In this document: positions 11,003 through 17,230 of the stretch, in pieces | How the letters are laid out: every line of letters begins with the position of its first letter | Position numbering within the stretch: position 1 is the stretch's first letter | Source: an uncultured Mageeibacillus sp. | GTDB taxonomy: Bacteria; Bacillota; Clostridia; Saccharofermentanales; DTU023 | Direction: 5' to 3' | NCBI GenBank assembly: GCA_964606165.1 | Contig: CAZSFQ010000003.1 | Coordinates: forward strand, 64,322-128,321 | Length of the DNA stretch: 64,000 nt | Program-made: the position numbers and the translations under genes | The notes under the pieces: model-generated | Told to the model about the DNA's origin: nothing | Database searches by the model: none | The model's input: only the letters and a program-made list of their open reading frames with translations

Positions 11003-11293
11003 CTAACGGCTGTCCTCCGTTTGCAGAAGCAGTTTTTCAAGACCCTCGTCATCGAAGGCAATTTCGACAACATTTGTCAAGAGATCAATGTAGCTGAAAC
11101 AGACATGTTCACTGTAGGTCGGGCTGACGGGACAGCAAACGGTAAAAACATTTGATGAGCAGTTTTCAAGATAACCCTCATGTATGACTGTACGGCGGCG
11201 CCCTCCGTTTGACTTAAGCATGATACGTTGTCCAAGGCGTTCTTCCAGTTCAGCTCGGCATGAAGCCAACTCAGATTTTGCAATCAATTGCAT
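11003..11293 (-). CDS. veg: Veg family protein
   Basis: 96 aa. LKSNGGRRRT...FSYIDLLTNVVEI resembles B. subtilis Veg. veg next to ispE is the usual Firmicute arrangement. Confidence 0.8.
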   Translation of the reverse strand: MQLIAKSELASCRAELEERLGQRIMLKSNGGRRRTVIHEGYLENCSSNVFTVCCPVSPTYSEHVCFSYIDLLTNVVEIAFDDEGLEKLLLQTEDSR

Positions 11294-11399: not shown

Positions 11400-12482
11400 T
11401 CAGGACATGTCAGCGACGACACCGCCTCCCAGAACCCGGTCGCCGTCGTAGAAGACAGCGGACTGGCCCGGAGAAGTGATCCGCACCGGTTCTGCAAACC
11501 TGATCCTCGCCTCCCCATGCTTGGGCCCCGTCAGCACAGTCGCGTCATGAGGTGTCCCCTGAGAACGAAGTTGAACCCCCGCGCGAAAGGTGCCGGGCTG
11601 GGGCCCGGCCAGGACCAGGCCGGTCAGAAGGGCTTCCTTCATCAGGGCAGCGGACTCTTCGCCCAGCGTCACTGTGTTATGGCAGTGATCGGTGGCAAGA
11701 ACAGTCATCCGTCTGCCAAAAGACTGGCCAAGATGGCGGCGCTGTCCTGGCGTGTATTGCCAGCTTCCTTTGTGTTCACCAATCACTTCTCCTGCCGGGT
11801 CAATAAAGAATCCGGGATTCTCCTCCAGGCCCCAGCGGCCGAGGAAAGCTCTCAGCTGGTTCTTTGCGATAAAGCAGATATCCTGACTGTCCCTGGCCTC
11901 CGATACCGGGTCATGAAAGCGCTGGGCCAGCCGCCGTGCTTCCTCCTTGGATAAACTTCCAACAGGAAAGAGAAGCCTGCCAAGCAAAGAGGGTTCGAGT
12001 CTGTACAAGAAGTAGCTTTGGTCGTGACGCCGGTGGAGTGCACGATAAAGCCAATAACCTTGATCCGTCTCCACGACACGCGCGTAATGGCCGGTGGCCA
12101 GGTACTGAATGCCCAACTGATCGGCCAGATCACTCATATGGGCAAACTTGAAGCCGGGGTTGCACAGGACGCAGGGATTAGGCGTCAAACCGCCCTTCCA
12201 GGCTTCCACGAAAGGGACAACCACTTCTTGGTAAAAGGCCTGCCTGACATCCAGGACCCTGTGAGGGATCCCAAGGATACGGGATGACCTTTCCGCCCTT
12301 TCTATCCTGGATCTGTCGGCCTGGTCTTCCTGCCAGGTCCACAAGGTCACGGCTGTCACTTGGTAACCTTTTTCCTGCAGCAAGACAGCGGAAGCCATGC
12401 TGTCCACGCCTCCGGAGAGGCCAAGCAGAACCTTGCGCCCGGAAGCCTTTTTGCTGCTTTTCTTTTGCTGATTCTCTTTCAC
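11400..12482 (-). CDS. mnmA: tRNA 2-thiouridine(34) synthase MnmA
   Basis: GTG start. PP-loop LGLSGGVDS plus the conserved NPCVLCN and ATGHYAR motifs. Confidence 0.9.
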   Translation of the reverse strand: MKENQQKKSSKKASGRKVLLGLSGGVDSMASAVLLQEKGYQVTAVTLWTWQEDQADRSRIERAERSSRILGIPHRVLDVRQAFYQEVVVPFVEAWKGGLTPNPCVLCNPGFKFAHMSDLADQLGIQYLATGHYARVVETDQGYWLYRALHRRHDQSYFLYRLEPSLLGRLLFPVGSLSKEEARRLAQRFHDPVSEARDSQDICFIAKNQLRAFLGRWGLEENPGFFIDPAGEVIGEHKGSWQYTPGQRRHLGQSFGRRMTVLATDHCHNTVTLGEESAALMKEALLTGLVLAGPQPGTFRAGVQLRSQGTPHDATVLTGPKHGEARIRFAEPVRITSPGQSAVFYDGDRVLGGGVVADMS

Positions 12483-12540
12483 TCTTTCATTTTATGGGTC
12501 AAAGCGACGCCTGTCGAGTTGTATTGCCATCGGGAAAAAG

Positions 12541-12900
12541 ACAGACGCGAAACGGGCAGGATTCCCATTTCTTCCCGGGAATCAGCTGCCCGTTCCTTCG
12601 AGGTGTACTTTCAAAGTACGCCTCCTTTCCTGTCCCTTCATGGCCGCTTTGCCGGTCAAAGTCAGACGACCCCATGAACGATTCCGGCCATAAGAATACG
12701 GTTTGGTGCGCTTTCGTTGCGGTCACCCGTCTTCTCAATGAAAGAGGTAACGCACCCCTGGCTTCAGGTATTCCGCACCCGCGCGCACTAGCGCGGTCTT
12801 TCGGGACACTCCATTGTCTGATTACTTACAACTTTCTGGTGAATCCGACTCAATACGGACGCACATTTCCGTCTATGTAATCCAATCGAGGTTGCCATGA
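12541..12900 (-). ncRNA. Candidate structured 5' leader or ncRNA upstream of mnmA, riboswitch-like with a possible glnA-RNA-like core. Unclassified.
   Basis: ~470 bp with no credible ORF in an otherwise densely coding window. It has its own promoter, several nested helices (for example 12600-12624, a 9-bp stem) and a 3' hairpin. CGUUCA at 12680-12675 and GAAGGAACG near 12599-12591 flank an ACAGGAAAG-hairpin element. Confidence 0.45.
12551..12594 (-). terminator. Terminator-like or attenuator hairpin in the mnmA leader
   Basis: AACGGGCAGCUGAUUCCC...GGGAAUCCUGCCCGUU forms a ~14-bp stem. It is followed by UUCGCGUCUGUCUUUUU, so the U-tract is not immediately adjacent. It lies ~70 nt before the mnmA GTG. 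Confidence 0.5.
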
Positions 12901-12928
12901 TCCTAGCATATTCCCGATTTCCTGTCAA
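12900..12928 (-). promoter_or_regulatory. Sigma-70-type promoter for the mnmA leader
   Basis: On the minus strand: TTGACA (12928-12923), a 17-nt spacer, then TAGGAT (12905-12900). It lies just downstream of the XRE gene stop. Confidence 0.5.
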
Positions 12929-12952
12929 TATTTATCCGCCTTCTTTGAATGT

Positions 12953-13378
12953 TTATGTAGCATGAAAATCCGGTTCGCCTGCAGGCTCATTTTTCGCCTC
13001 GAGTGTCTCAATTTCCAGGTAAATCTCTGCCCTGTCAAGAACCCGCTGCCGCGCAAGCGGTGATAGCCGGTTCATGATAGCGAGCAGGCGTGTTTTCTGT
13101 TCAAGGGGAAAGAGTGTTTCTTCCATGCCATGACTCAGGACAGCGCCAATACGCAAAGGGACCGGGGACCCAATGAGGGAATCATTTACATCTTCCATGC
13201 CAAGGATTTGGTCGAGCGTTGCTCCAAACATTGTGGCCAACCGCTTGGCCGTTTTGATATCGGGGTAATTCCGACCGCCCTCCCATTGGCTGACGGAAGT
13301 TTGCGTGACGCCGAGCACGTTTGCCAGCTCGCTTTGCGTCATATGGTTCTTTTTACGAAAATAGCGGATTCCATTCAA
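12953..13378 (-). CDS. XRE-family helix-turn-helix transcriptional regulator
   Basis: IRYFRKKNHMTQSELANVLGVTQTSVSQWEGGRNYPD is a classic HTH_3 motif. The TTG at 13378 has a GAAGGTGG RBS; the ORF-track start is 13387. Confidence 0.8.
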   Translation of the reverse strand: MNGIRYFRKKNHMTQSELANVLGVTQTSVSQWEGGRNYPDIKTAKRLATMFGATLDQILGMEDVNDSLIGSPVPLRIGAVLSHGMEETLFPLEQKTRLLAIMNRLSPLARQRVLDRAEIYLEIETLEAKNEPAGEPDFHAT

Positions 13379-13561
13379 TGCGACCACCTTCTTTCTGGTT
13401 CAATCCAGACTGCTAATTACAATCAATGCGTTCAAAAGACCCTTAGCGGATTCAATATTGCAATTCCTTTTTTATTTGGCAATTTAACAGGAATTACCCA
13501 GATCCGATCAGGTTACGCGTCAATGATAACAGATAATATGTTAGCAATACCACAATGTGCG

Positions 13562-14572
13562 TTACAAATACCAGGAAGGAACAGGCGTGCGGAAGAGGTC
13601 ATGTTGGCGTGACAGGGAGGCAAAACGGTCAATCTTGCGGGATTCGCTGGCCGACCCGGCCGGCGACCGCCTGAGATCGTGGAGGATGGACGTCATGGCG
13701 TGATGTGTCAGAAGGGTAAAAAAATGAGATGGAATATCCATATTGAAGTAGAGGTCAATCAGGTATTGGCGGTCCTGGACGCTGGCGCCCGACAGGTCAA
13801 ACAAAATTTTGCACAAATCCATATCGGCGATGTCTTCGCTTAAGAAAAAGGGTAGATCAATCAGCAGCGCACCACATTCGGTGCAGGTGAAACAAGTGGT
13901 GGCGAACGCCCCGAAAGAGAGTGTCAGACGATAGCTTGTCGAGCGTGAAATGCTGCGGGCGTTTTGTATATAAAAAGATTTCCAGTGCCTGAATACGGGC
14001 TTTTTCGGAATCCGCCCCGCAAGGGCCTCCACAAGATCGACTGCCCTTGATTCCATTTGAGCCATCATCAAACGGCTTTCCTTCCTCTCGAAATAGTTCT
14101 CACCTGTTTGAAGCAGCCGCAAGAAACCTGTCAACTGGACCAGGTTCTCAAAACGGGGAGGATTGGAATCCGAAATGTCCTGAAAGAAAGAGCGGGTTTT
14201 TCTTTTCTCCGAATAACCGACGTAGCCTTCCTCGACACCCTCCCAAGAGATTTCCGGCACCATCTGATCCATAAACCGAAATATGTGGGAAGAACTTGCG
14301 ATGATCTCACTTGCCCAGTAAAGCTGATTCCATAATCCGGAGACACGCGGCCATTCGCGCCAGGGTCCGGCCAGCAGCCAATGGGCGCGTCCCTCCCGGT
14401 CGAAGGCTTCGTAGATTACACAATCGCGCTCCGGCTGCCGCGCGTGACAAGCGCCAAGATGCCAGCCGCGCAGTTTTCCAATTTTGCCCAAGCGTTCCCG
14501 CAATCTGGTCAGTCCGTCAGTTGAACAAAGCATCTGCCCACTGGATTCAGCCATACTGCCTCTATTCTTCAT
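13562..14572 (-). CDS. Hypothetical protein with a possible aminoglycoside/choline-kinase-like fold in which the catalytic motif is degenerate
   Basis: 336 aa. The C-terminal segment SFGAFATTCFTCTECGALLIDLPFFLSEDIADMDL aligns by eye to the APH HGDxxxxN...IDxE..GDPxxDL pattern with His, Asp and Asn replaced. This is a weak call. Confidence 0.35.
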   Translation of the reverse strand: MKNRGSMAESSGQMLCSTDGLTRLRERLGKIGKLRGWHLGACHARQPERDCVIYEAFDREGRAHWLLAGPWREWPRVSGLWNQLYWASEIIASSSHIFRFMDQMVPEISWEGVEEGYVGYSEKRKTRSFFQDISDSNPPRFENLVQLTGFLRLLQTGENYFERKESRLMMAQMESRAVDLVEALAGRIPKKPVFRHWKSFYIQNARSISRSTSYRLTLSFGAFATTCFTCTECGALLIDLPFFLSEDIADMDLCKILFDLSGASVQDRQYLIDLYFNMDIPSHFFTLLTHHAMTSILHDLRRSPAGSASESRKIDRFASLSRQHDLFRTPVPSWYL

Positions 14573-14676: not shown

Positions 14677-15873
14677 TTAACGCTTGCGGCCAGGGTATTG
14701 ATCGAGCGCAATCTTCAGAATACGCATGGCATCCTCAATATCTTCTGCTTTCAGGACGTAGGCGACGCGAACCTCATCGCGGCCCATGCCGGGCGTTTGG
14801 TAGAAATTCTCAACAGGCGCCAGCATGACAGTTTTGCCCTGGTACTCGAAGTCTGTTAAAAGCCAGATCGCGAAATCCTCCGCATTGTCAACCGGCAGTT
14901 TGGCTGTCGCGTAGAATGCGCCACCCGGTTTCTCGCAAAGGACGCCCTCCATCTTCTGAAGCGCGTCGATCATAATATTTCTTCTTGTCTCATACTCCTG
15001 GCGAATGGGAAGAAAGTAATCAGGGTCAAGGTCGAAGAGGGCCTTGGAACCGATCATTTCCAGTGTCGGCACGCACAAACGCGCCTGGCCAAGTTTGAGC
15101 GCCGCTGTCATGACCTCTCTGTTCTTGCTGGTCAGGGAACCGATCCGCGCGCCGCAGGCCGAAAAGCGTTTGGACACACTGTCGATCAGGATAACACGGT
15201 CCAGCACATCCGTCATGGACCCGAAGCTGGTCGCTGTTTTCCCGTCATAACAAAACTCCCGGTACACTTCATCGGCAATGATGAAGAGGTTGCGGTCGCG
15301 GGCGATGTCAGCGATGCGGCGGACCTCTTCCTGACTGTAAACAGCCCCCACCGGGTTGCCGGGGTTCGACAAGACAAAACCACGTGTTTTTTCCGTAATG
15401 AGCCCTTCGATGGTCGGACGGTCCGGCAGGGCGAAACCGTCCTGGGGATAGGTCGTAATGGGTTTCAGCTCAACAAGATAGGGCGCGGCAAATCCGCGGT
15501 AATTGGTGTAAAAAGGTTCCGGAACCAGGATTTCCTCCCCCGGGTCACAGGTAATCAGCATGGCCCACTGGAGTGCCTCACTGCCCCCGTTTGTGATAAT
15601 GATATCTTCCGTTTCATAGGGCAGCCCGATTCTCTTGTAGTAGTTCGAAATACTTTCCCGAAGCGGCTCCCAGCCGTTGGAGTCCGCATAGGCGAGAACC
15701 TTGACATCCGCCTGCTTGACAGCCTCCAGGAAAACTTTCGGTGTTTCAATATCAGGTTGTCCAATGTTCAAATGGTAAACTTTCGTCCCGCGCTTCTTTG
15801 CCTCGTTCGCGTAGGGAACGAGCTTGCGAATCGGTGACGCCTGCATGGCAGCGCTGCGACTCGATATGATCAT
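14677..15873 (-). CDS. Class I/II pyridoxal-phosphate-dependent aminotransferase (aspartate-aminotransferase-like)
   Basis: SPIRKL...HLNIGQPD N-terminus and the PLP-lysine motif SVSKRFSACGARIG. The ATG at 15873 has an AAGGGGG RBS; the ORF-track start at 16086 is an extension. Confidence 0.85.
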   Translation of the reverse strand: MIISSRSAAMQASPIRKLVPYANEAKKRGTKVYHLNIGQPDIETPKVFLEAVKQADVKVLAYADSNGWEPLRESISNYYKRIGLPYETEDIIITNGGSEALQWAMLITCDPGEEILVPEPFYTNYRGFAAPYLVELKPITTYPQDGFALPDRPTIEGLITEKTRGFVLSNPGNPVGAVYSQEEVRRIADIARDRNLFIIADEVYREFCYDGKTATSFGSMTDVLDRVILIDSVSKRFSACGARIGSLTSKNREVMTAALKLGQARLCVPTLEMIGSKALFDLDPDYFLPIRQEYETRRNIMIDALQKMEGVLCEKPGGAFYATAKLPVDNAEDFAIWLLTDFEYQGKTVMLAPVENFYQTPGMGRDEVRVAYVLKAEDIEDAMRILKIALDQYPGRKR

Positions 15874-15975
15874 CCTTATACCCCCTTGTGTTGATTTGAT
15901 AAAATGATTTCTTCTTTCCGGTCTTTTGCCGGCCGGGCGTTTTGCATGCCCATCATAACATATCCGCCGGCAAAG

Positions 15976-16000
15976 AAAGGGCGTCTGACAGACGCCCTTT
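15976..16000 (-). terminator. Intrinsic terminator downstream of the FucI-fold gene
   Basis: AAAGGGCGUC-UGUCA-GACGCCCUUU hairpin followed on the minus strand by CUUUGCC. Confidence 0.65.
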
Positions 16001-16027
16001 CCGCTTATACAGGGGTGTGGATTCCCC

Positions 16028-17230
16028 TTATTGCCGGTAGGAGCGAAAGAACTCATCGACCAGCTCCTGATGATGGCCGAGAACAATCATGTGGTGGTTG
16101 GCGATCGGTCGTCTGGTAAAGTAATCAAGTCCCGAGGGGACCTCAAGTTCCATCTGCGTTCGGCACAAATTGCCTTCATGCATGCTGTTCAAGAGCCGGG
16201 CATCCGCCGCGTAGTAGGTCTCAAAATCGTCCGCGCATTTGAAAACCGTGCAGGCGCCGGAATCAAAATCTGCCGCGACGGATATCCCGAGACCACTTTC
16301 AAAGTGTGTGGTCAAGCCGTATTCCCGCGGCATGTTGAGCGGCAAAATGCAGTGCGCAAATACGATTTTGTTTTCAGCCGGATAAAGGCGGGATGGGTTG
16401 GCCATGAAGACGGGCTGTTCTGTCAGCTCGCCGATGACCGCCATGGAGACGAGGGAACGGCTGTCCCCCTCACAGGCCGCCCAGATCCCCTGGGCGTTCA
16501 GGATGCCAAGCGCCAGACAGCCGGTGATGCAAAAGGGCTCCAGCAGATCGAAGCAGCGCAGGGTGAACCCGTCCAGCATGTATTTATCAACCAGACGTCT
16601 GCAGGCGCCGTAAACCTGGAGCGCTCCCTCCATCGCTTCGCTGTCGTAGCCTTTGGCCTTCAGCTCGCGCGTCCACTCATTTTCTTCATAAGTCCGTCGC
16701 TCAATCTCCTCCATGACCTCTGCCATGGGCACATGGATGAGCTCCATCCCCGCGCGTTGACGCAAAAGATCCGCGTCGGCGGGCCGGCTGATCAGCCAGT
16801 CGGACTCGCCCGTCACGCCCAGCCGCATCCCATGAAGTTTACCGCGCGTTTCCGCTACGCGGATTAAAACACGCAGCCGGCCGGCAATTTCACCGGGACT
16901 TCCGTGAAGGATCTCTCCCCTCTTACCCTGCTCGTTCAAGTAAGAGAGGATCTCCATTGAAGCTGCCAGCGAATTGTGCGAGCGCGTCGTCAAGAGGATG
17001 TAGGGCCCCGGGACCTTCTCATAAATCGATTTGAATACCTGTTCCGATCCGCCCGAACCGATGAAGAAGAGATTGACAGGCTGGCGTGAAAACAGTTCCT
17101 GATCCTCAGTAAATGCCAGCGGCTCACCGAGCGCCGCGGAAATCTCATCCAGAAAGGCGGCACAGGAAGCCGCCAGGTTGGGATCGCGGTTGTCATCAGG
17201 GGCTTTCACCAGCCAAACTGCTTTTGTCAT
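16028..17230 (-). CDS. L-fucose/L-arabinose-isomerase-fold family protein; function unknown
   Basis: 400 aa. By eye it resembles the uncharacterised fucose-isomerase-like family (N-terminal Rossmann-like region, FAHCILP, ANHH motifs). No sugar transport or kinase genes are nearby. Confidence 0.45.
   Translation of the reverse strand: MTKAVWLVKAPDDNRDPNLAASCAAFLDEISAALGEPLAFTEDQELFSRQPVNLFFIGSGGSEQVFKSIYEKVPGPYILLTTRSHNSLAASMEILSYLNEQGKRGEILHGSPGEIAGRLRVLIRVAETRGKLHGMRLGVTGESDWLISRPADADLLRQRAGMELIHVPMAEVMEEIERRTYEENEWTRELKAKGYDSEAMEGALQVYGACRRLVDKYMLDGFTLRCFDLLEPFCITGCLALGILNAQGIWAACEGDSRSLVSMAVIGELTEQPVFMANPSRLYPAENKIVFAHCILPLNMPREYGLTTHFESGLGISVAADFDSGACTVFKCADDFETYYAADARLLNSMHEGNLCRTQMELEVPSGLDYFTRRPIANHHMIVLGHHQELVDEFFRSYRQ

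Follow-up and report, generated by a model that had tools for sequence, protein, structure and literature searches.

Results

An ORF-free gap upstream of mnmA carries a structured RNA

The window analysed here comprises 64,000 nucleotides of DNA from an uncultured Mageeibacillus sp., and at positions 12483-12952 it contains a gap of 470 bp free of open reading frames (ORFs), located between two minus-strand genes, an HTH_3 regulator gene on the 5' side and mnmA on the 3' side. By a crude ORF tiling this gap is the largest ORF-free stretch of the window, as the original prediction had stated, and the next-largest apparent gap is in fact covered by an ORF of 496 aa. The gap harbours a predicted RNA of about 350 nt on the minus strand (12541-12895), supported by its fold and detected by nhmmer in all related loci (E values from 1e-129 to 1e-20). 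Judged from the searches described below, the RNA belongs to a new family that matches no described one. The earlier view of the gap as a real structured RNA with a promoter and a terminator-like hairpin at its 3' end is upheld by the fold, the homologues and the covariation.

The gene downstream of the gap, mnmA (11400-12482, minus), encodes tRNA 2-thiouridine(34) synthase (Pfam tRNA_Me_trans PF03054, PF20259 and PF20258), and its product scores 316 bits against NCBIfam NF001138 (MnmA), for which the cut-off is 284. The upstream gene (12953-13387, minus) encodes an HTH_3 (Xre-type) regulator of 144 residues (Pfam PF01381), and its stop codon is only 25 nt away from the -35 element of the RNA. 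The gene order common to the loci is aminotransferase, a 330-residue protein of no known family, HTH_3, RNA, mnmA, veg and ispE, with dtd on the opposite strand.

The RNA promoter is located at 12928-12900 on the minus strand and consists of the -35 element TTGACA (12928-12923), a 17-nt spacer with TG at 12908-12907, and the -10 element TAGGAT (12905-12900), giving 10 of 12 consensus matches plus the TG extension in a consensus scan. TTGACA-17-TAGGAT had been pointed out before at this very place, and the TG extension comes in addition. The strings ATTGACA and TGnTAnnnT are present in every homologue, while the sequence of the spacer varies. The RNA gene is thus predicted from its sequence to have its own promoter, conserved in all lineages as the motif TTGACA-17-TGnTAnnnT, and transcription would start at about 12894, 7 nt past the -10 element. 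At the other end lies P14, a terminator-like hairpin of 18 bp (12549-12596, minus) in which a 2-nt bulge separates a lower stem of 11 bp from an upper stem of 7 bp. It has a stability of -30 kcal/mol and is followed by UUUCGCGU. The hairpin covaries, with an A-U to G-C double change of the lower stem in locus L088 and the upper stem GCUCC:GGAGC in L104, and 4-7 U are found within the first 8 nt past it across the homologues. P14 was not called a terminator by the scan tool, as its loop is larger than the limit of the tool. The 3' end of the RNA is probably just past P14, at about 12548-12541.

Distribution of the RNA

When the MnmA protein was used as the query with one genome per species, 80 loci were obtained, and only the closest of them carries a similar upstream region. 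This locus is from a metagenome-assembled member of Saccharofermentanales, its mnmA is 61% identical, and its upstream region was matched by nhmmer with E = 7e-62, promoter included. Further loci were reached via closer and more distant MnmA proteins in metagenome assemblies, and a metagenome scan with the pattern of the 3' hairpin yielded 10 more stretches, all from the same clade. Altogether there are 17 distinct homologues, 15 of them aligned with MAFFT (alignment A1), plus the divergent L103 and L104. In these homologues the region upstream of mnmA, which the original prediction had proposed to compare, is conserved in both sequence and structure.

The RNA is present in every close relative, with host MnmA proteins 44-87% identical to that of the window. 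All copies come from one clade of uncultured Clostridia and from one fixed locus, and the records with a stated source are anaerobic-digester metagenomes. In the 79 other species-representative mnmA loci it was not found with the profile or with a covariance model of the 3' module, nor was it found in the viral contigs or in the plasmids that were scanned. At the nucleotide level the RNA is more conserved than the coding sequence of mnmA, and the last 88 nt (the 3' domain) are 80-99% identical between copies.

The RNA is kept where it is uncoupled from its neighbours, as far as the sequences of these loci tell. The HTH_3 gene is syntenic at every locus but L098, where a tRNA-Thr(GGU) gene (915-990) replaces it on the 5' side of the RNA; hence the RNA is not tied to the HTH gene. 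In L083 and L096, the RNA and mnmA are separated (1740-2160 in L083) by a convergent gene with its own ribosome-binding site, which encodes a hydrophobic protein of 78 residues (a membrane protein) and is followed by the bidirectional terminator AAAAGAGGA..TCCTCTTTTTT. The RNA keeps its promoter there and is followed by UUUUUAUUAUU, a strong U tail, and mnmA, about 800 nt away, keeps its own promoter. This arrangement was seen in this lineage only. Conversely, L102 (mnmA 49% identical) has the HTH gene, 117 nt and then mnmA, and no RNA was detected there with the profile and the covariance model.

Conserved fold

The minus strand of the window folds at -157 kcal/mol, compared with -131 +/- 5 kcal/mol for shuffled sequences (z = -4.95; none of 100 shuffles was as good), and the plus strand gives z = -3.39. 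The minus strand is identified as the transcribed one by its abundance of G-U pairs, P12 of the window alone having three. To derive the fold, RNAalifold was run on the MAFFT alignment, four subgroups were then folded separately, and finally each sequence was folded alone; the subgroup and single-sequence folds led to one common architecture of about twelve helices backed by covariation.

The 5' arm (12809-12893) is a long irregular hairpin made up of P1, P2, P3 and P4. P2 (GAUUAC 12882-12877 : GUAAUC 12825-12820) has a C-G pair replaced by U-A in L095 and L097, a double change, and the strands of the P4 hairpin (12864-12839) covary; the register of P1 varies between lineages. The central domain (12632-12807) is closed by P5 and consists of a stacked rod and a side branch. 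P5 (GUCCC 12807-12803 : GGGAC 12636-12632) is invariant in 15 sequences and reads GCCUC:GAGGC in L103 and L104. The rod contains P6 (12796-12793:12647-12644, CCGC:GCGG), P7 (12788-12783:12711-12706, GUGCGC:GCGCAC), P10 (12777-12773:12722-12718, UGCGG:CCGCA), P8 (12769-12765:12729-12725) and the P9 hairpin (12758-12744, GGUUGCGUAACC). In the side branch P11-P12 (12651-12688), P11 (GCCGG 12688-12684 : CCGGC 12655-12651) shows a change from C-G to U-A and carries an internal loop, AAUNGUUC, that is conserved; in the P12 hairpin (12673-12658), which is 97.8% paired, 4 of the 6 pairs are changed on both sides. All of these elements are on the minus strand.

Among the in-register helices of A1, 96.6% of the cells are paired, and double-sided changes occur in nine pairs (22 cells). 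None of 500 shuffles reached the pairing or the covariation score, and sliding the partner by 1-3 columns lowered the pairing to 32-52%. P6, P7 and P10 are out of register in the MAFFT alignment and their strands were fitted by hand; with these curated strands 5, 5 and 4 pairs, respectively, have double-sided changes, and 0 of 1000 partner shuffles were as good. Moreover, an alignment-free comparison of cognate strands with strands taken across lineages gave p = 2e-5 for P4 (mean duplex energy -13.2 kcal/mol for cognate and -8.5 kcal/mol for non-cognate strands), 9e-4 for P6, 8e-5 for the rod and 6e-5 for P12, values that are indicative only, since the sequences are related. Because all copies come from one narrow clade, the independent substitutions are modest in number. 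The divergent L103 and L104 have compensatory versions of helices that are invariant in the main clade (P5, and the upper stem of P14 as GCUCC:GGAGC), and their P10 and P8 are merged into an 11-bp helix of unrelated sequence; L104 folds alone into the same architecture.

Five helices had been proposed from the window alone, and they fared differently in the comparison. The two 3' hairpins are conserved: the 9-bp hairpin at 12624-12600 is P13, and the 14-bp hairpin at 12594-12551 is P14, which extends to 18 bp at 12596-12549. The other three, CCGCGC-UAGU-GCGCGG, GGUG(AC)CGC-AACGAAA-GCGCACC and the 10-bp CUUAUGGCCG/CGGCCAUGAAG, are used by the minimum-energy fold of the window alone and are specific to it; in relatives these strands belong to P6, P7, P10 and P11, and the compensatory changes favour those partners. 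A further pairing, between J8/9 (AAGCCAG) and the 3' strand of P12, fits several lineages and is uncompensated in the window's own group, and it was rejected on inspection by eye.

The 3' module

The most conserved part of the RNA is its 3' module, which is composed of a purine tract, the hairpin P13 and a frame of ten codons ending in P14. The purine tract AGGAAAGGAGG (12621-12631, minus) includes 10 nt complementary to the 3' tail of 16S rRNA, CCUCCUUUCU, the tail used being the usual one of Firmicutes; GGAAAGGAGG of the tract and GAUCACCUCCUUUCUA of this tail form a 10-bp duplex of -17.0 kcal/mol. GGAGG is invariant in 17 of 17 sequences. P13 (12600-12624, minus), GAGG-C-GUACUU-UGA-AAGUAC-A-CCUC, pairs the Shine-Dalgarno-like GGAGG with an anti-Shine-Dalgarno-like CCUC and carries UUG in its loop. 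It is essentially identical in all 17 sequences, L103 and L104 included, with a stability of -11 kcal/mol.

The ten-codon frame, UUG AAA GUA CAC CUC GAA GGA ACG GGC AGC UGA (12582-12614, minus), begins with UUG at 12614-12612, 5-7 nt past GGAGG, and its stop codon (12584-12582) falls in the 5' strand of P14. Frame, length and stop are kept in 16 of the 17 sequences, L088 being frameshifted. The main clade uses UGA as the stop, and L103 and L104 have UAG at that codon.

Several other roles for these hairpins were considered and rejected. That P13 and P14 are DNA operators for an HTH protein is contradicted by L088, where both sides read GUGC instead of GUAC, a change that still allows G-U pairs in RNA and breaks the DNA palindrome; for P14, the compensatory changes speak for pairing in RNA. 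A mimic of a tRNA anticodon loop for MnmA in the loop of P13 would need an A-A closing pair in the register with UUG as the anticodon, as read from the sequence. An antiterminator between the P11 loop (GGAAUC) and the upper stem of P14 (GAUUCC) is matched by a double change in L091 and not by L098, and in L103 and L104 both parts differ and are non-complementary. More generally, a conserved alternative partner was not found for either strand of P14, the best partner sitting elsewhere in each lineage.

Comparison with known RNA families and coding sequences

A search of Rfam 15 at gathering level gave no match anywhere in the 64-kb window. For the RNA itself in the window and in nine homologous loci, there is no family match at E <= 10, and this covers the T-box, Downstream-peptide and raiA families that had been suggested as candidates, as well as RNase P, 6S, SRP, tmRNA, OLE, ROOL, GOLLD and HEARO. 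The one exception is a marginal alignment in the window to the glnA RNA, the candidate put forward most prominently. The letters on which that proposal was based, CGUUCA and GAAGGAACG, are indeed present. However, when 651 nt were searched at relaxed thresholds with Rfam RF01739, a model of 53 positions, the score was 15.3 bits (E = 2.2), far short of the gathering score of 35. The only letters aligned are AUCGUUCA and GAAGGAACG, the two strands of P1 of that model, with insertions of 30 and 45 nt between them, so the likeness is limited to two short strings on the outer strands of the model. The RF01739 aptamer is compact and has P1 as CGUUC:GAACG, whereas here the putative strands are 76 nt apart. 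In relatives the interval between them forms P11-P12, P6, P5 and P13. The core of the model is matched only as insertions, replaced by 75 nt of unrelated structure. The pairs of this P1 are broken in L001 (GGUUC/AAACG) and also in L088 and L085, and the GAACG strand lies in the lower stem of P14, at the place of the A-U to G-C double change in L088. A switch had also been imagined in which the AACG strand of P1 is shared with the terminator-like stem; it finds no support. Furthermore, the glutamine class has been reported only from cyanobacteria and marine metagenomes, mostly 5' of gifB/DUF4278 (PMC6212724). The present RNA is found in Clostridia-type assemblies, in an HTH/mnmA context rather than next to a nitrogen-metabolism gene. 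Given the score, the missing core, the loss of P1, and the taxon and gene context, membership in the glnA RNA class was rejected, and a glutamine riboswitch or a close variant of it is extremely unlikely.

The window sequence GGGUGACCGC is faintly like the T-box motif GGGUGGUACCGCG, and relatives read GUUACCGC, GUGGCUGC or AAGCCUC at this place. Like T-box leaders (RF00230), the RNA is from a Firmicute, is a few hundred nt long, and has a long 5' arm, a terminator-like hairpin and a tRNA-related neighbour; unlike them, it has no Rfam match, no conserved T-box or specifier features and no antiterminator. A T-box leader was rejected on these grounds. The length is near that of RNase P RNA or tmRNA and the strong promoter is typical of stable RNAs, and hence a diverged copy of one of the universal RNAs (RNase P, 6S, SRP or tmRNA) was also considered. 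Besides the negative Rfam result, ARAGORN found no tRNA or tmRNA in the RNA, the universal P4 sequences of RNase P are absent from it by sequence reading, and the RNA is confined to one small clade. As for a decayed protein gene, another alternative raised earlier, no frame on either strand stays open across the homologues, and 121 of the 168 internal gaps of A1 are 1-2 nt long, so that indels break every frame. The two local ORFs have no Pfam match, and no large protein-database search was made for coding remnants. Taken together, a diverged universal RNA or a decayed gene is very improbable. Finally, neither the conserved strings nor RNA motifs linked to mnmA returned anything in the searchable literature.

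The predicted promoter of mnmA

mnmA appears to have a promoter of its own inside the gap (12480-12517, minus), with the -35 element TCGACA (12517-12512), 17 nt, the -10 element TAAAAT (12494-12489), and 6 nt before the GTG start codon (12482-12480); it has 10 of 12 consensus matches in the consensus scan. Counted over 15 lineages, 12 have a -35/-10 pair ending exactly 6 nt 5' of an in-frame ATG or GTG, and a Shine-Dalgarno sequence is absent. The -10 hexamers differ by lineage (TAAAAT, TAAGAT, TAGACT, TATTAT, TAGAAT and TACGAT). Since the -10 element ends 6 nt before the start codon and there is no Shine-Dalgarno sequence, this is the signature of a leaderless mRNA, and from the promoter geometry mnmA is very likely to be leaderless in this clade. 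A read-through mRNA would be poorly translated, because the then internal start of mnmA has no ribosome-binding site.

The original prediction had called the region a leader upstream of mnmA. The upstream position, the structure and the common strand hold; the role as a leader looks doubtful in view of the separate mnmA promoter in 12 of the 15 lineages and of the terminator in L083 and L096. Antisense control of the 5' end of mnmA was considered as well, since the RNA segment CUCUUUCAU (12738-12746) is complementary to the first 9 nt, GUGAAAGAG (12474-12482), of the predicted leaderless mnmA mRNA. This complementarity exists in the window, L087 and L081 only and in no other lineages, and the idea was rejected.

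Neighbouring genes

Some features of the neighbouring genes are of interest in their own right. The Veg homologue (11003-11293, minus) is 86-100% identical in protein sequence across genomes whose MnmA proteins are only 53-87% identical, which is unusually strong conservation for a small protein. In L102 (1435-1553) no veg gene was called, and AAGGAAA stands in front of mnmA, which is therefore possibly not leaderless there. The 336-residue protein encoded at 13562-14572 (minus) has no Pfam or NCBIfam match and is syntenic directly 5' of the HTH gene in most related loci. The aminotransferase ORF (14677-16086, minus) is mechanically 469 residues long when started from TTG. Its true start is probably further in, given that the homologues have called lengths of about 398-400 residues and that the match to the family begins near residue 73.

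Discussion

We think, with moderate confidence, that the gap contains a stand-alone and strongly transcribed structured RNA gene of a new family, which would end at P14 and whose invariant 3' module would act on a highly conserved partner. Comparison of the sequences shows that the RNA is conserved, that it has a common fold and common promoter motifs, and that in some genomes it is uncoupled from mnmA. Beyond that, we infer the ends of the transcript, its termination at P14, its partner and any effect on the cell. In the proposed mechanism, the RNA would be transcribed from the extended -10 promoter, starting about 7 nt downstream, and would most likely stop at P14 and its short U-rich tail. 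The transcript would fold into three modules, namely the 5' hairpin arm, the central rod P5-P6-P7-P10-P8-P9 with the P11-P12 branch, and the near-invariant 3' module. mnmA would not be the cargo of the RNA and would be made as a leaderless mRNA from its own promoter. The RNA would thus act alone via the 3' module by binding a very conserved partner, for which the small ribosomal subunit or a protein seems most plausible, and the ornate 5' two-thirds may serve as a scaffold or a sensor.

A number of points weigh against a stand-alone RNA. In 15 of the 17 distinct sequences the RNA directly precedes mnmA in the same orientation, as a leader would. This adjacency in itself says little either way, as the whole neighbourhood is syntenic in a narrow clade. 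Most genomes have only a short U tail (UUUCGYNU, 4-5 U in 8 nt), a strong one being present in L083 alone, and for this reason read-through past P14 is plausible. In three lineages, L089, L095 and L097, the start of mnmA is about 26 nt from P14 and no -35 element is recognisable, and mnmA might depend on read-through there. In addition, a Shine-Dalgarno sequence and UUG followed by a ten-codon frame that stops in P14 have the layout of an attenuator. The promoters and the transcript ends are predictions from sequence, and the proposed partner is a guess. The main rival explanation is a cis-acting attenuator of mnmA-veg-ispE, in which transcription would stop at P14 unless a ribosome translating the ten-codon frame blocks the hairpin, with the 5' part or P13 setting the loading of the ribosome. 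In its favour are the common strand and the direct adjacency in most genomes, the short U tail, the three lineages without a clear separate mnmA promoter, and the strong Shine-Dalgarno sequence with its 5-7 nt spacer, UUG, ten codons and stop inside P14 in 16 of 17 sequences. Against it, mnmA has its own promoter and is leaderless in 12 of the 15 lineages; in L083 and L096 read-through would run into a bidirectional terminator and a convergent gene, and the RNA is fully kept; L102 does without the RNA; and the small frame is shifted in L088. Moreover, there is no conserved antiterminator, and an invariant hairpin, which has no conserved route of opening, sequesters both the Shine-Dalgarno sequence and the start codon. 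A ribosome trailing the polymerase prevents formation of the terminator hairpin in pyrBI, and the present RNA shares with such leader-peptide attenuators the Shine-Dalgarno sequence, the short frame and a frame end that covers the 5' strand of the terminator. It differs from them in lacking regulatory codons and a conserved alternative hairpin and in having about 270 nt of conserved structure ahead of the frame; in addition, mnmA has its own leaderless promoter and, in one lineage, a convergent gene stands in between. We regard the attenuator as an unlikely explanation, though the likeliest of the rivals.

The same frame could also be the product of the locus, the RNA being a tiny mRNA whose long structured 5' untranslated region controls a 10-residue peptide, MKVHLEGTGS. 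In 16 of the 17 sequences this reading frame has the same start, length and stop, and the encoded peptide does not vary at residues 1, 3-5 and 9 and hardly at residue 8. However, the conserved codons coincide with P13 and P14, so that conservation at the RNA level explains them. Most substitutions alter the amino acid, residues 2, 6, 7 and 10 change non-conservatively and there are almost no synonymous changes. Together with the frameshift in L088 and with a length of 10 residues that offers no export or processing signal and no obvious role, this makes a tiny mRNA improbable. A riboswitch of another kind, sensing a metabolite or a tRNA (for example T-box-like) and acting on mnmA via P14, is scarcely less improbable. 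The size and complexity are like those of large riboswitches, the end is terminator-like, the downstream gene acts on tRNA, and there is the faint likeness to the T-box motif. Yet no such family was matched at E <= 10 in the window and the nine homologues, relatives do not share the T-box-like letters, a search for a conserved antiterminator found none, mnmA has a separate promoter, and the arrangements in L083 and L102 do not fit. Furthermore, conservation is highest in what would be the expression platform, the reverse of the usual pattern in riboswitches.

A more far-reaching reading can be put forward as a speculation. The RNA may represent a new class of large structured RNAs with a module for ribosome recognition at its centre, which combines a 10-nt complement to the 16S tail, a locked Shine-Dalgarno/start hairpin and a ten-codon frame ending in the RNA's own terminator. 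It would bind or sense the small subunit in trans, or the loading of ribosomes would report on some signal sensed by the ornate 5' domain. We consider this reading possible and rather unlikely. OLE, raiA, ROOL and GOLLD are closest in kind to the present RNA, being several hundred nt long with many covarying helices, their own transcription signals and no evident coding potential, and they are likewise from Clostridia-type or environmental genomes. The present RNA differs from them in having no sequence or structure match in Rfam 15 and in being far narrower in distribution, with one clade and one locus. To our knowledge, none of these four has a hairpin with a Shine-Dalgarno sequence and a start codon together with a short frame.

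The narrow distribution, one clade of digester Clostridia, limits the general reach of the finding. New large bacterial RNAs backed by covariation are nevertheless rare, and past classes such as RNase P, riboswitches, OLE and ROOL opened new biochemistry. The finding corrects a tempting misreading, that of a Firmicute glutamine riboswitch controlling tRNA thiolation. In its place, the RNA offers a clear fold, a testable and near-invariant 3' module that is apparently built for the ribosome, and natural genomes with and without it.

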